IMG/VR virus record: IMGVR_UViG_2703719369_000026
DNA: 14,832 bases
Reading direction: 5' to 3' (one strand)
DNA from: a virus
Taxonomy: Duplodnaviria; Heunggongvirae; Uroviricota; Caudoviricetes
Below the pieces are notes generated by a model. That model did not search any database, had not been told where the DNA came from, and worked only from the letters and a program-made list of their open reading frames with translations. Shown in pieces: positions 2,051 through 10,926 of this stretch (position 1 is its first letter; every line of letters starts with the position of its first letter). A program made the position numbers and the translations under genes.

Positions 2051-2455
2051 TCACCTACCCTTAGTTTCGTTATAGTCACGACCAGCGATACGGTTATTAC
2101 CACCAGAAATATTTAACTCACGTCCTGATGGCTGAGTTTCCTTTTCACTGATCGCACCTTTTAAAGCCCCAATCACCGCGTTTTTCACATCTAACGAAGC
2201 TGCTCGAAAGCGAGTAATCAATTCCTGCTCATCATCGTTATAAGTTTCAGGTGAGTGAATTCCCAACACAACATACTGAACATCAAGGCCAAAACGAGAC
2301 AGCGCTGCCAAATACGCAGCATCAGGAAAGCTATCTCCTTTCTCATATCTAAGCTGAGTTAGCTTTTTGACTCCACCAATGTCGCTCATGGCAACTTGAC
2401 TAAGTCCCAATCTTTCCCTTTCCTCACGCAACCGCCGACCAATATCATTTTTCAT
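2051..2455 (-). CDS. XRE-family (Cro/CI-type) helix-turn-helix transcriptional regulator, candidate immunity repressor
   Basis: 134 aa. The N-terminal 65 residues fit the HTH_XRE pattern (IGRRLREERERLGLSQVAMSDIGGVKKLTQLRYEKG). It is first in the leftward operon and transcribed divergently from the rightward early genes, matching the position of P2 C or 186 cI. Confidence 0.8.
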   Translation of the reverse strand: MKNDIGRRLREERERLGLSQVAMSDIGGVKKLTQLRYEKGDSFPDAAYLAALSRFGLDVQYVVLGIHSPETYNDDEQELITRFRAASLDVKNAVIGALKGAISEKETQPSGRELNISGGNNRIAGRDYNETKGR

Positions 2456-2464
2456 ACAAAAACC

Positions 2465-2488
2465 TTGACAGGTATCTTTTTTGATACC
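2465..2488. promoter_or_regulatory. Candidate operator/promoter: TTGACA hexamer followed by a perfect inverted repeat GGTATC-TTTTTT-GATACC
   Basis: Read directly from the sequence: TTGACA at 2465-2470, GGTATC at 2471-2476, a T6 spacer, GATACC at 2483-2488. It lies in the 75-bp divergent region between the XRE repressor gene and the rightward genes. The -10 element and strand assignment are not resolved. Confidence 0.4.
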
Positions 2489-2530
2489 AAAATGATTTCA
2501 CGAGCTATTAGATGATCACAATATACCACT

Positions 2531-2737
2531 ATGAAACAAGTTCTTCACGATACCAGATCACGCATTCCGCGTAACACCGCCACAGGTCCAAGACTGGCAC
2601 TTCGGCTGTCCCTCGAGGAGCGAGCCGTCATTGATGAAATGGCAGCTAAAGAACAACGCTCATCCTCTAACATGGCGCGCATGATCTCCCTTCGCGGCCT
2701 AGAGCTAACCCAGAAAGAACAAAACAAATCTTCCTGA
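2531..2737 (+). CDS. Putative ribbon-helix-helix DNA-binding protein
   Basis: 68 aa with an RHH-like beta-strand plus two helices (RLALRLSLEERAVIDEMAAKEQRSSSNMARMI). No clear Shine-Dalgarno sequence, so it may be leaderless or weakly translated. Confidence 0.4.
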   Translation: MKQVLHDTRSRIPRNTATGPRLALRLSLEERAVIDEMAAKEQRSSSNMARMISLRGLELTQKEQNKSS

Positions 2738-2753: not shown

Positions 2754-2957
2754 ATGTCAGGTATAACCATCAATATCAATGTGAATGCCCCCTATGTATC
2801 CCTGCAGAAATATGCAGAGATAACAGGTATCCCTCTTAATACATGCAAAAAGATGTTGGCTGACGGTCGAATTATTATCCGCCCCAAACGCGCCAAAATG
2901 GAAAAGCCTGAAGTAAACCTTGTGGCGATGTTAAAAGACGCTTTGGCTAACAGCTAA
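2754..2957 (+). CDS. Putative Cox/Apl/Xis-like small HTH protein (excisionase or early regulator)
   Basis: 67 aa. AGGAGG ribosome-binding site 8 nt upstream. The motif YVSLQKYAEITGIPLNTCKKMLADGRI resembles the excisionase-type HTH. Its position, first clear rightward gene opposite the repressor, matches cox/apl. Confidence 0.5.
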   Translation: MSGITININVNAPYVSLQKYAEITGIPLNTCKKMLADGRIIIRPKRAKMEKPEVNLVAMLKDALANS

Positions 2958-2978: not shown

Positions 2979-3329
2979 ATGAAAAAAAACGCTAATAATC
3001 CATACTCCAAATTTCGTAATGGCGTAGAACGCCATGTACACCACGTCGCTACCAGTGCATCACGTAGTAACAGTCGCTATAACCTGAACGAGACGCATGC
3101 AACACCGGATGGCCACGCTGTAAAACAAATCGGCGAACATGCCTGGCTGATTGAGAAAGCTGGAATCGTGGTCCACAAATGCCCACGCAATCCGTTTACC
3201 GGGAACCGCATTTTTGCATTGAACTGCGGCGACAATCACTTCGGGCAGGATTTCACATTATACGAAGCACTTCGCACGGTTGATCGTCTGCTTCGCGGGC
3301 AAAGTTTTATTAAACAGGCTGATTTATAA
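2979..3329 (+). CDS. Hypothetical early-region protein
   Basis: 116-aa ORF in the rightward gene chain; no recognisable domain. Confidence 0.45.
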   Translation: MKKNANNPYSKFRNGVERHVHHVATSASRSNSRYNLNETHATPDGHAVKQIGEHAWLIEKAGIVVHKCPRNPFTGNRIFALNCGDNHFGQDFTLYEALRTVDRLLRGQSFIKQADL

Positions 3330-3339
3330 CAGGTGCTTT

Positions 3340-3618
3340 ATGACCAAAGAGCATGCACAAGGTGTATTTATCCGTTTTATTGATTTTCGCGGTGAACTGT
3401 TATTACGCGCATCAGCCATTGACGGAATTGTTCCATCCGAAAAAAACGCAGCTACTTACGTTTATCTGAACGGTACGCGCCTGACTGTGGAGCTTCCGTA
3501 CCAGACCGTACGAGAAATCATTAGCGAAGCTGAAAAGGCTCGTCAGGTTAATGGCGATGAACCCTATATCGAAATTATTTGTATGGATTCAGAAGCTGAA
3601 ATTCAGAAAGCAGATTAA
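3340..3618 (+). CDS. Hypothetical protein
   Basis: 92 aa starting at the ATG at 3340, which has an AGGTG ribosome-binding site. The longer 3280 start in the ORF track would overlap the previous gene by about 50 nt. Confidence 0.5.
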   Translation: MTKEHAQGVFIRFIDFRGELLLRASAIDGIVPSEKNAATYVYLNGTRLTVELPYQTVREIISEAEKARQVNGDEPYIEIICMDSEAEIQKAD

Positions 3619-3629
3619 AGGGCGTTGCG

Positions 3630-3872
3630 ATGGGCAAAGAATATAAAACTCTCATTAACAAAGCACCTGAACGATTTTATTTTCGCTTAAGTGCATCAGG
3701 CGCTCATGCTGAACGTGCAGCCCGTGACTCATTGACCAGGGCAATCCGGAGTTTGTATGACGTTGCTTTTTACGCTGATGATCTGGATGCACTTAACGAA
3801 CTTTCCGAGCTGATCTGTGCCGCAGAATGCGGGGAACACATTGAACCATATAAGCTGGGGAATATCGCATGA
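3630..3872 (+). CDS. Hypothetical protein
   Basis: 80-aa ORF. Its stop overlaps the next start (ATGA at 3869-3872). Confidence 0.5.
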   Translation: MGKEYKTLINKAPERFYFRLSASGAHAERAARDSLTRAIRSLYDVAFYADDLDALNELSELICAAECGEHIEPYKLGNIA

Positions 3873-3982
3873 GTATATTTATCTCATGGCTTGTTCTGAT
3901 TATTTCGGTGGCCTGCGCCATTGGGATTATGCGAATTATTCATTCAGTAAAAAAGATTGAACGCTTTTTCACTGACAAATAA
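3869..3982 (+). CDS. Putative 37-aa single-TM membrane peptide
   Basis: Not in the ORF track because it is under 60 aa. Translated by hand as MSIFISWLVLIISVACAIGIMRIIHSVKKIERFFTDK: a hydrophobic helix followed by a basic tail. Its start is coupled to the upstream stop (ATGA). Confidence 0.35.
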   Translation: MSIFISWLVLIISVACAIGIMRIIHSVKKIERFFTDK

Positions 3983-4074
3983 CAGCTTAAACAGAACACC
4001 AGATTAAACCCGAAAACCTGAAAACTATCCGCATTCGCGGAGGTATTCGCACACGTAAATAACGGAGATATAAA

Positions 4075-4491
4075 ATGAACGCAAAAGAAAAAAATATTAT
4101 CAATACATTAAAAATAGTGTCAGCAGAGCAAGACAAGCTGTCCAGGGCAGCCCAGAAAGATAATCAACATATGGCAGCGCTTTACGCACTGACCATCGCA
4201 ATAGCCACCCCTGAAGCAGCCAAAGTTATTGAGGAACAGAGCAAAGAAATCGACACTCTTAAAACACAGTCAACAGTTGCAGCCATGAATCCGTCCAGCA
4301 TTGGACGCTGCATTTATATTCTTGGTTCAGCAATGATGCTGCAATACACCATTATTGCCGAACTGCACGGCAAATACCTGATAACGCCTTACCACACAAA
4401 AGAGTCAGAGCTTCTGACAAATCTCCGCCTGATAGAACGCTCTCAAGCTGTATTCATTGATGACGCGCAACGTGCCGTATTTAACGCATAG
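4075..4491 (+). CDS. Hypothetical protein
   Basis: 138 aa with a GGAG ribosome-binding site; no recognisable domain. Confidence 0.5.
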   Translation: MNAKEKNIINTLKIVSAEQDKLSRAAQKDNQHMAALYALTIAIATPEAAKVIEEQSKEIDTLKTQSTVAAMNPSSIGRCIYILGSAMMLQYTIIAELHGKYLITPYHTKESELLTNLRLIERSQAVFIDDAQRAVFNA

Positions 4492-5277: not shown

Positions 5278-5399
5278 GAAACCAGAACATGCACACACAA
5301 AAAAACCGCTTGCCATGCCGCAATCGGTCAGGTTACATTTCCGCTGCACCTCATAAAACGGGTGCCGGGATTCTCAACCCGATACAGAGCAAAGCGCAT

Positions 5400-5420
5400 A
5401 ACCGCGCTAGCGGTTTTTTT
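5400..5420 (+). terminator. Candidate intrinsic terminator (hairpin plus T-run)
   Basis: AACCGC-GCTA-GCGGTT stem-loop at 5400-5415 followed by TTTTTTT through 5420. It lies about 125 nt downstream of the 4978-5277 gene. Confidence 0.45.
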
Positions 5421-5599
5421 GTGCGTACTGTATTGCCACGTCTTTTTCGCGTCAGAATTATGGCGGGGCGTACGGGGCCGACTTCGGTCGGGCCGGATTC
5501 TTTGCTCTCCGGTGTTGAGAACCCTGTACGTCTCGCCACCCCGAGATTCTCAACTCTGGATGGTGAGTTATTTCTATCACCGAGCAAAGAGGCCACACC

Positions 5600-5830
5600 A
5601 TGGCAGACCGCAAACAGCACCGCGCTATCGCGGAGCGTCGTCACATCCAGACTGAAATCAACCGCAGACTTTCCCGCGCATCACGCGTCGCGCAAATCAT
5701 GCACATCAATATGCTGCATGAGCGCAGCCACGCACTATCAAACATTTATTCCGCCTCTGTTTTCAGCTATCTGGCGGATGATCTGCACGAGTTTCAACAG
5801 CTCATCCAGCAGCAAAACAAACTCCATTAA
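5600..5830 (+). CDS. Hypothetical small basic protein
   Basis: 76 aa with an AAAGAGG ribosome-binding site 7 nt upstream. It is preferred over the overlapping 205-aa ORF at 5289..5906, which crosses the hairpin structures. Confidence 0.4.
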   Translation: MADRKQHRAIAERRHIQTEINRRLSRASRVAQIMHINMLHERSHALSNIYSASVFSYLADDLHEFQQLIQQQNKLH

Positions 5831-9173: not shown

Positions 9174-10133
9174 ATGAAAATTTGTATCGACGACGGCTCC
9201 ACCAACATCAAGCTGGCATGGACTGAGAACGGCGAACGCCGCAACGCCATCAGCCCGAACAGCTTCAAGTCGGAATGGTCTGCGCCATTCGGTGGCACGC
9301 AGCCCGCGAACTACATGCTTGATGGCGTGCGCTATGGTTTTGATCCGGTCAGCGATCGCTTTGTCCAGACGACCGACACGCAATACCAGTACAGCGATGT
9401 GAATGTAATTGCCATTCATCACGCGCTGGTCAAATCAGGCATCACACCACAGGAAGTGGATGTGGTTGTCACCCTGCCACTGAGCGAGTATTTCGATACA
9501 AACGCACAGCCGGACATGGCCAACATCAACCGCAAAAAAGCGAACGTCATGCGCCCGGTGGAGTACCAGAACGGCGAAGCATTCACTATCCGTAACGTAC
9601 GGGTTATGCCTGAATCCATTCCTGCTGGCTTTAAGGCACTGGCTGACATGAGTCCGTTTGAATCCCTGCTGATTGTGGATTTGGGCGGAACCACGCTGGA
9701 TGTGGCAAAGGTTCAGGGGCAACTGGCAGGTATCAGCCAGGTGTTTTGCGATCCACACGTAGGCGTTTCTCTGATGGCCGATGCCGTACTGTCGGTGATG
9801 GCCACTAACGGTATGCGCACCAGTCACCACATCGCCAATACCATTATCGAACATCGCCATGATGAAGCCTGGCTGCGCCAGCACATCCACAATGACGCGC
9901 ATTACGCCAGCCTGATGGCGGTTATTCGTGAAAAGGAAGAAACACTGAAACAACGCGTGATCCGCGCGCTGGCGGTTTTTTCGGGTTACGGGCGGGTGAT
10001 GGTTGTCGGTGGCGGGGCGGAGATTGTGGCAACCGCTATCCGCGAAGCCTGCGGAGTTAATGCGACTTTCATCGCGGACGGGGTGCCACAGTTTGCTCTG
10101 GTTAATGGGTTGTACGCAATGAACAAGGAGTAA
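9174..10133 (+). CDS. parM: ParM/StbA actin-like segregation ATPase (type II partition)
   Basis: 319 aa, alignable by eye along its full length to R1 ParM. Actin-fold motifs are present: IDDGSTNIKL (phosphate-1), VDLGGTTLD (phosphate-2) and VVGGGAE. AAGGA ribosome-binding site. Confidence 0.92.
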   Translation: MKICIDDGSTNIKLAWTENGERRNAISPNSFKSEWSAPFGGTQPANYMLDGVRYGFDPVSDRFVQTTDTQYQYSDVNVIAIHHALVKSGITPQEVDVVVTLPLSEYFDTNAQPDMANINRKKANVMRPVEYQNGEAFTIRNVRVMPESIPAGFKALADMSPFESLLIVDLGGTTLDVAKVQGQLAGISQVFCDPHVGVSLMADAVLSVMATNGMRTSHHIANTIIEHRHDEAWLRQHIHNDAHYASLMAVIREKEETLKQRVIRALAVFSGYGRVMVVGGGAEIVATAIREACGVNATFIADGVPQFALVNGLYAMNKE

Positions 10134-10137
10134 ACCA

Positions 10138-10452
10138 ATGACGACACCAACCAGACGGATAAGTTTCTATCTGAAGCCCGCCGCCGTCAAGAGTGAACAG
10201 GAGGCGTGCAATTACCTCGATAGCCTGCCAGCCTCCGAACGCAGCCGCGCGCAACGCGCGGCCTTTCTGGCTGGGCTAGCACTCATAAAGCGCAACCCAG
10301 CATTTGCCTACTGGATGGCCGAATGGCCAGAGGACAACCTCCCCTTCAATACCGTTAGCATCAAGGAAACATACCAGGCTAATCAGCCTAGCGGAGTTGA
10401 ATGCAATTTTTATAAAATAAAAAAGAATATTCAGACCTTATTCCCAGAATAA
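10138..10452 (+). CDS. parR: ParR/StbB centromere-binding adaptor
   Basis: 104 aa starting 4 nt after the parM stop. The N-terminal RHH region (ISFYLKPAAV ... LDSLPASERSRAQRAAFLAGLAL) matches the R1 ParR pattern. Confidence 0.85.
   Translation: MTTPTRRISFYLKPAAVKSEQEACNYLDSLPASERSRAQRAAFLAGLALIKRNPAFAYWMAEWPEDNLPFNTVSIKETYQANQPSGVECNFYKIKKNIQTLFPE

Positions 10453-10471: not shown

Positions 10472-10926
<455 letters not shown>

Follow-up and report, generated by a model that had tools for sequence, protein, structure and literature searches.

The window analyzed here, i.e. the whole stretch of DNA considered, comprises 14,832 nucleotides (nt) of the IMG/VR virus record IMGVR_UViG_2703719369_000026 and is a P88-like prophage (Xuanwuvirus, Peduoviridae, P2 family) in Escherichia coli O157:H7. 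The subject is a gene for a 37-amino-acid (aa) membrane peptide, which follows a chain of three early genes and starts within the end of the last of them, a DUF4754 gene. A preliminary description based on the letters of the window had pointed to this head-to-tail chain and to the ATGA overlap between the last stop codon and the 37-codon open reading frame (ORF), and reading of the sequence confirmed the arrangement and its coordinates:

2979-3329, plus strand: DUF4761 gene, 116 aa, opening the chain (PF15958, E 2.1e-64; phrog_2492)
3340-3618, plus strand: phrog_3800 gene, 92 aa (E 7e-59), with AGGTG 4 nt 5′ of the ATG
3630-3872, plus strand: DUF4754 gene, 80 aa (PF15946, E 4.5e-53), with AAGGG a few bases 5′ of the ATG
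3857-3862, plus strand: purine-rich GGGGAA resembling a Shine-Dalgarno (SD) sequence, 6 nt 5′ of the peptide ATG and within the DUF4754 coding sequence
3869-3982, plus strand: gene of the 37-aa single-pass membrane peptide (WP_000021655.1), with a transmembrane (TM) segment at residues 3-21 and an amphipathic tail at residues 22-37

The ATG of the peptide gene (3869-3871) overlaps the TGA of DUF4754 (3870-3872), and the gaps between the upstream genes are 10 nt (DUF4761/phrog_3800) and 11 nt (phrog_3800/DUF4754). The three upstream genes had been taken for ORFans, a view that their membership in the families listed above contradicts. Also, the peptide gene had been called unannotated, while RefSeq holds WP_000021655.1 for this very sequence and a sample of 30 E. 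coli genomes spanning the identity range had the gene annotated without exception. The existing labels are 'hypothetical protein' in RefSeq, 'Prophage membrane protein' in UniRef and 'membrane protein' for AIZ95115.1 of phage P88, and the record of phage vB_EcoM-569R5 likewise has a (putative) membrane protein. The entries in RefSeq, UniRef and P88 describe a 37-aa product which follows DUF4754 as in the window and which has the same sequence or one with 92-95% identity.

The peptide has the sequence MSIFISWLVLIISVACAIGIMRIIHSVKKIERFFTDK. Its TM segment reaches a Kyte-Doolittle (KD) mean of 2.68 over 19 residues and a summed value of -2.9 kcal/mol on the Hessa scale, and no other of the window's 146 ORFs between 25 and 70 aa in length is as hydrophobic as the peptide. 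Hydrophobicity alone proves little, because a second, chance ORF attains a KD value of 2.53, so that two of the 146 small ORFs lie at or above 2.5. The TM helix is free of charged or strongly polar residues. No charge precedes it, and the tail (residues 22-37) holds five K/R and two D/E; from this distribution, insertion with the N-terminus outside and the C-terminus inside the cell is predicted. For the tail, the hydrophobic moment of 0.64 is significant, being reached in 199 of 5000 shuffled sequences (4%). The preliminary description had proposed one TM helix plus a basic tail. The helix and, for the peptide of the window, the excess of basic residues were found as described, whereas amphipathicity and R22 are conserved among the relatives and basicity is not. 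Net tail charge drops to about +1 in 41-aa homologues (manual count) and the commonest relatives end with FTGE or FTEE. Therefore, 'amphipathic' fits the conserved feature of the tail better than 'basic'. Taken together, the peptide is a single-pass membrane protein of the phage early operon, which databases already list as a hypothetical protein and which lies outside any described family.

Conservation of the peptide gene and its pairing with DUF4754

The preliminary description had proposed a search for conservation of the small ORF in related elements. The comparison took in 80 loci from IMG/VR, four phage records and the genomes of two species representatives, and the ORF turned out to be widely kept. 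The ATGA junction and the open frame were present in 86 of the 87 loci anchored on DUF4754. The sole exception was phage 503458, the record of which contains several indels; the 54%-identical 'homologue' from this indel-ridden record is uninformative and was set aside. Residues 1-33 are near-constant, while the last four residues vary (FTDK, FTGE, FTEE, FSDE). Among the 74 distinct haplotypes, seven carry a 1-nt deletion in the T5 run leading to a 45-aa variant. This recurrent deletion within CGCTTTTTC (window 3960-3968) was observed on several haplotype backgrounds (L005, L038, L039, L064, L079, L080, and L082) and replaces the last four residues by a 12-residue tail. In phage Chuche, a stop occurs at codon 31 of the peptide.

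The pooled ratio of nonsynonymous to synonymous polymorphism (pN/pS) was 0.23 in the peptide frame, with 1.88 and 0.87 for the two alternative frames; for the neighboring genes it was 0.16 (DUF4761), 0.24 (phrog_3800), and 0.035 (DUF4754). Nucleotide diversity at codon positions 1, 2, and 3 was 0.037, 0.035, and 0.092, i.e. the third position is about 2.6 times as diverse as the first two, and overall diversity was 0.055 in the ORF versus 0.137 in the spacer 3′ of it. Because frame, start and overlap are kept and pN/pS is low in this frame only, the comparison of the loci shows the 37-codon ORF to be a genuine, widespread protein-coding gene under frame-specific purifying selection.

The ORF was found in 1320 of 5426 complete E. 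coli genomes (24%), and prophages of Salmonella, Citrobacter, and E. albertii also carry members of the peptide family. A scan of the GTDB species representatives yielded two loci only, one in E. albertii and one on a contig labelled Vagococcus sp. WN89Y (L002), with 96% identity. The presence of the cassette on this Gram-positive-labelled contig is likely due to contamination or mis-binning.

More distant relatives were sought by exact cluster look-up, by tblastn against phages and with HMMER over the whole set of 1.84 billion protein representatives. The latter gave only nine matches, including 41-aa forms with 64% and 57% identity. In total, the 41-aa homologues are 54-68% identical to the peptide, while a Salmonella form of 50-53 aa is 32-38% identical. 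All homologues (contexts L089-L105) start in an ATGA overlap with a DUF4754-type gene of exactly 80 aa. DUF4754 keeps this length without any indel in every lineage, down to 25% identity: beside the 41-aa peptides it has diverged to 25-39% identity and in the Salmonella lineage to 51%. The pair is also maintained where its neighbors are missing, since phrog_3800 is absent from its chain position in lineages with 41-aa peptides (pair kept without it in L089, L093, and L098) and DUF4761 is absent in L103. An SD-like purine run (GAGGTGG, GAGGAG, AGGAGG, or GGGAA) is located 6-9 nt 5′ of the start in all lineages, and it is kept though the DUF4754 C-termini in which it is embedded differ (LGNIA, TEVAA, IEELA, IQEEA). 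As far as the alignments reach, DUF4754 and the peptide thus form a fixed two-gene unit in every lineage found.

In the alignment, M1, S6, W7, I20, and R22 are invariant across all peptide forms, and the family shares a TM helix framed by S-W and I-x-R, which is followed by an amphipathic tail. Positions 13, 16/17, and 19 are always occupied by small residues (S/A, C/A, and G/A), as read from the alignment by eye and without a statistical test; this pattern suggests a helix-packing face.

The statement that ORFs this short are routinely missed by annotation proved wrong for the peptide of the window, and very short members of the family do at times escape annotation. In Salmonella enterica, TM ORFs of 50-53 aa at the ATGA overlap (L101 1740-1892, L102 686-847) were left uncalled by gene callers, and for the RefSeq phage record NC_049344 only DUF4754 is listed under the match; the Salmonella ORF is a truly unannotated member of the family. 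Database proteins of 103-128 aa looking like fusions of DUF4754 and the peptide were rejected as natural fusions, as they are frameshifted or erroneous reads in other frames. In one locus (L090), a DUF4754 of the window type (81% identical) is combined with a 41-aa-type peptide that otherwise stands beside a 39%-identical DUF4754. There, the DUF4761/DUF4754/peptide/gpA region (L090 1-1795, minus strand) adjoins a Mu-type transposase gene (HTH_Tnp_Mu_1, Mu-transpos_C) in place of one for a tyrosine integrase.

When the peptide was searched together with three of its homologues against the complete Pfam-A and PHROG collections at E ≤ 10, no family emerged and sub-threshold noise only was seen (PET117, DUF6095, Nlp36, phrog_5620, and phrog_5315), and scans of the peptide against NCBIfam and PADLOC gave no meaningful family match. 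No Rfam family was detected at 3600-4200 at E ≤ 1. The AlphaFold2 model of DUF4754 is a generic three-helix bundle (predicted local distance difference test score 78.6), for which Foldseek found no match in the PDB at E ≤ 0.001, and sequence searches of the PDB with DUF4761, phrog_3800, and DUF4754 returned nothing below E 0.1. The label 'DNA modification methyltransferase' given to DUF4754 in P88 was dismissed, as it is backed by nothing beyond a 9-bit PADLOC hit. In the library searched, no papers turned up for DUF4754 or DUF4761, nor for the accession numbers or the sequence of the peptide, and searches on P88, Xuanwuvirus, and P2-like early operons yielded nothing on these genes.

Early operon, spacer and hairpin

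The 2-kb stretch around the gene chain matches many chromosomes of E. coli O157:H7 with 100% identity. In strain TR01, the same stretch adjoins yecA. There, integrase, a DUF2511 gene, a hypothetical gene and the repressor follow each other on the minus strand, and a run of small genes, 'derepression protein', replication endonuclease gpA, ParM, an IS3 remnant and tail genes on the plus strand. The nearest phage records are Escherichia phage P88 and relatives, including P884B11 and 503458, which are classified as Xuanwuvirus; the peptide is 92-95% identical in P88 and P884B11. Close DNA and protein similarity as well as the layout from integrase, repressor and Cox to gpA place the window in this group. 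The O157 prophage is degraded, with an IS3 remnant and a frameshifted tape-measure gene, and the peptide ORF is still intact. In the DUF4754 of O157, a proline is present at position 13 (codon 3666-3668, NKAPERF) within the first predicted helix, where other aligned homologues have leucine; this may be a damaging change in the already degraded prophage.

The chain belongs to the early lytic operon of this P2-family prophage, in line with the location proposed in the preliminary description. On its 5′ side lie a Pe-like promoter, an Arc-like gene and a Cox-like gene, gpA follows on its 3′ side, and the repressor and integrase genes stand opposite. A Pe-like promoter between a divergent repressor and the Arc-like and Cox-like genes corresponds to the P2-type switch arrangement:

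2051-2455, minus strand: repressor gene, divergent from the early operon
2465-2493, plus strand: Pe-like early promoter (TTGACA-17-CAAAAT, 10/12, consensus matches only), facing away from the repressor
2531-2737, plus strand: Arc-like ribbon-helix-helix gene, 68 aa, first of the early operon (phrog_3431 'Arc-like repressor', E 4.3e-27, full length)
2754-2957, plus strand: Cox-like excisionase/repressor gene (phrog_575, E 1.2e-27; RefSeq name 'DNA-binding protein')

RefSeq lacks the 68-aa Arc-like ORF and has a hypothetical 45-aa protein (WP_001673482.1) called on the opposite strand at 2545-2682 (minus) instead. Probably, the mis-annotated gene of the window is this Arc-like ORF (2531-2737) and not the 37-aa peptide.

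Behind the peptide gene, the conserved cassette ends with the following features:

3983-4055, plus strand: A/C-rich, G-poor spacer, the most variable part of the cassette
4028-4041, no strand assigned: 5-bp hairpin TCCGC-N4-GCGGA, 45 nt past the peptide stop and running straight into GGAGG (4039-4043)
4075-4491, plus strand: 138-aa cargo gene (phrog_9338), marking the downstream limit of the conserved cassette

Homology between the phages stops at about 4055, i.e. about 15 nt past the hairpin and before a variable cargo slot. The 138-aa gene has a counterpart in phage 569R5, and in P88 and Chuche a 67-aa gene directly follows the spacer. The hairpin was found in all lineages with freely varying loops. 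Across 16 distinct variants, 98.8% of the cells are paired, including one compensatory change from C-G to T-A, and three wobble variants pair on the plus strand only. A run of T follows the hairpin on the minus strand and none on the plus strand, and the terminator scan scores a terminator-like site on the minus strand. The hairpin could serve as an mRNA end or stabilizer, as a boundary element, or as a terminator of antisense transcription. Also, a promoter-like site (CTGACA-16-GATAAT, 10/12, consensus match only) was noted on the minus strand from 4123 to 4096, inside the 138-aa cargo gene. It points at the terminator-like site (4041-4028), and a short RNA antisense to the beginning of this cargo gene could originate from it.

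Possible roles of the peptide

Tentatively, at somewhat less than an even chance, we favor the reading that DUF4754 and the membrane peptide are a translationally coupled module acting at the inner membrane during early lytic growth, in which the peptide would place or hold DUF4754 or both would act on a membrane target. The firmest piece of structural evidence, the invariant overlap with DUF4754, speaks for co-translation and a joint role, and hence a two-protein module is preferred. According to this model, ribosomes ending DUF4754 would reinitiate on the peptide gene, whereby both proteins would be made together as soon as the repressor releases Pe, at induction or infection. The peptide would then insert into the inner membrane in the N-out/C-in orientation, with W7 at the periplasmic and R22 at the cytoplasmic interface, residues 22-35 would lie as an amphipathic helix on the inner leaflet, and the small-residue face of the TM helix would provide a helix-packing surface. 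Most likely, the peptide would thereby bring the soluble three-helix DUF4754 to the inner membrane or hold it there; alternatively, both proteins might act jointly on a target in the inner membrane of the host. In either case, the function would be accessory and non-structural.

Several points weigh against this reading. The translational coupling is one that we infer solely from the overlap of the two genes. In most lineages, the peptide is better conserved than DUF4754, its proposed partner. The mixed pairing in L090 argues against tight co-adaptation, as the two types look interchangeable. Because the 45-aa deletion variants recur and the Chuche peptide ends at codon 31, the extreme C-terminus of the peptide, i.e. 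its last four residues, seems dispensable. Finally, the module is without a functional anchor, because DUF4754 has no informative fold match.

The nearest positional parallel is found in phage 186 (Eganvirus, P2 family), in which fil blocks cell division and dhr depresses host replication. In both phages, small accessory early-operon genes come after the switch genes and before replication gene A, with fil and dhr being non-essential; two genes overlap (fil/dhr in 186, DUF4754/peptide here), and a hairpin follows (tR1 in 186, TCCGC-N4-GCGGA here). The switch genes are apl/cII in 186 and Arc/Cox here. The analogy is one of position only. Fil (75 aa) and Dhr (66 aa) differ from the peptide in that neither is a short peptide with an N-terminal TM segment, and tR1, as an intrinsic terminator, possesses a T-run, a feature missing on the plus strand of the present hairpin. 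The characterization of the peptide as Kil or Fil-like is thus limited to this analogy: BLASTP gave no alignment with Fil at E ≤ 100, and the best Smith-Waterman score (29 over 10 residues) was matched by 3.3-4.5% of shuffled sequences. A resemblance of IxRIxHxVxK to the Fil C-terminus was therefore discarded, as it failed in BLASTP as well as in shuffling. For lambda Kil and Rac KilR, no curated-model match was obtained in Pfam-A and the PHROGs at E ≤ 10, no pairwise comparison with Kil having been made.

As the preliminary description had proposed, the peptide might instead be an autonomous host-takeover inhibitor, which by itself binds and blocks a machine of the host inner membrane (the divisome, a transporter, or a respiratory component) via its TM helix, like other small single-pass inhibitors, and is linked to DUF4754 by expression only. 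We regard this as possible but doubtful. Across most lineages the peptide (54-68% identity) outconserves DUF4754 (25-39%), and together with the mixed types this would fit a constraint imposed by a conserved host target rather than by DUF4754. The conserved small-residue face with the invariant S6, W7, and R22 and the operon place matching that of fil/dhr, between switch and replication genes, are consistent with such a role as well. However, similarity to Fil or to any Pfam or PHROG family is missing, the ATGA overlap invariant in every lineage would be unneeded for a free-standing inhibitor, and the Salmonella lineage reverses the trend in conservation (DUF4754 51% versus peptide 32-38%). 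A role in exclusion or protection is improbable, in which the peptide, with or without DUF4754, would bar the DNA of superinfecting phages from entering or would shield an infected or induced cell in some other way. Such a function would be in accordance with a small inner-membrane protein that is very widespread in prophages (in 24% of complete E. coli genomes) and whose ORF has stayed unbroken although the O157 prophage is degraded, but the gene resides in a repressor-controlled early operon and not in a lysogenic-conversion slot, its only candidate promoter of its own is a weak consensus match at 3655-3683, and no PADLOC model matched.

Type I toxins are small inner-membrane peptides of about 30-50 aa with one TM helix and a charged C-terminal tail, controlled by antisense RNA antitoxins. 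The peptide is likewise small and hydrophobic with a single TM segment, its size and hydrophobicity being within the range of these toxins, and minus-strand promoter-like and terminator-like sites are located just 3′ of it. Nevertheless, a membrane-damaging toxin which depolarizes or permeabilizes the membrane as type I toxins or holins do is quite improbable. The gene is embedded in an operon and translationally overlapped with DUF4754, and is without a toxin mRNA of its own; the minus-strand elements lie outside the ORF, the promoter-like one being in variable cargo absent from P88; Rfam gave no small RNA at the locus; and the TM helix is without charged or strongly polar residues. Also, features of holins were not found, as the gene lies in the early operon outside the lysis cassette and has no PHROG or Pfam match. 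Scarcely credible is the explanation that the ORF is not translated at all and owes its conservation to an RNA or DNA element or to hitch-hiking with DUF4754. Chance hydrophobic ORFs do exist in the window and a conserved hairpin is nearby, but the purifying selection is frame-specific, the frame is preserved among relatives diverged to 32-68% identity at the amino-acid level, where synonymous changes are numerous, and the hairpin lies outside the ORF.

The layout of the peptide, in which a short N-out TM helix precedes an amphipathic one, also resembles that of TatA and TatE, from which it differs by the lack of a long C-terminal region. With the NCBIfam TatA model, 41-aa homologues gave weak hits (E 0.004 and 0.11), and the 37-aa peptide gave none. 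The scores of these hits, from 12.4 to 16.9 bits, fall far short of the curated cut-off of 104. The resemblance is one of composition and shared layout, not of membership.

Returning to the preferred module of DUF4754 and the peptide, small membrane proteins of phages are an under-studied class, among which this peptide is unusually common and clearly selected, and the strict overlap with DUF4754 offers a clean two-gene unit for testing. In a bolder version, which we consider unlikely, DUF4754, the TM peptide and the hairpin would represent an undescribed, obligately coupled Peduoviridae module directed against a conserved host inner-membrane machine, e.g. the divisome, in early lytic growth. 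If this were true, a functional counterpart of Fil/Dhr of phage 186 would be present in about a quarter of the complete E. coli genomes. Host targeting would also assign a function to two uncharacterized early genes of the P2 family and possibly provide a new handle on an inner-membrane process of the host.

Further features of the window

Downstream of gpA, a gene for a ParM-like segregation ATPase and partition/stability genes are located at 9174-10452. A stretch of 44 masked (N) bases at 10696-10739 lies beside an ALIL pseudoknot (120 bits; 10751-10867, minus strand), which is the frameshift signal of the IS3-family transposase remnant interrupting the prophage. Directly upstream of the 'derepression protein' gene (5600-5830, plus strand), Rfam identified an isrK Hfq-binding RNA at 5346-5420 (plus strand; 63 bits, E 9e-12) and a C4 antisense RNA at 5456-5543 (plus strand; 78.5 bits, E 3e-14). 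This region looks like a P1/P7-style c4/IsrK-antirepressor arrangement within a P2-family prophage, and a strong, terminator-like hairpin is present at 5400-5415 inside the 3′ part of the isrK match.

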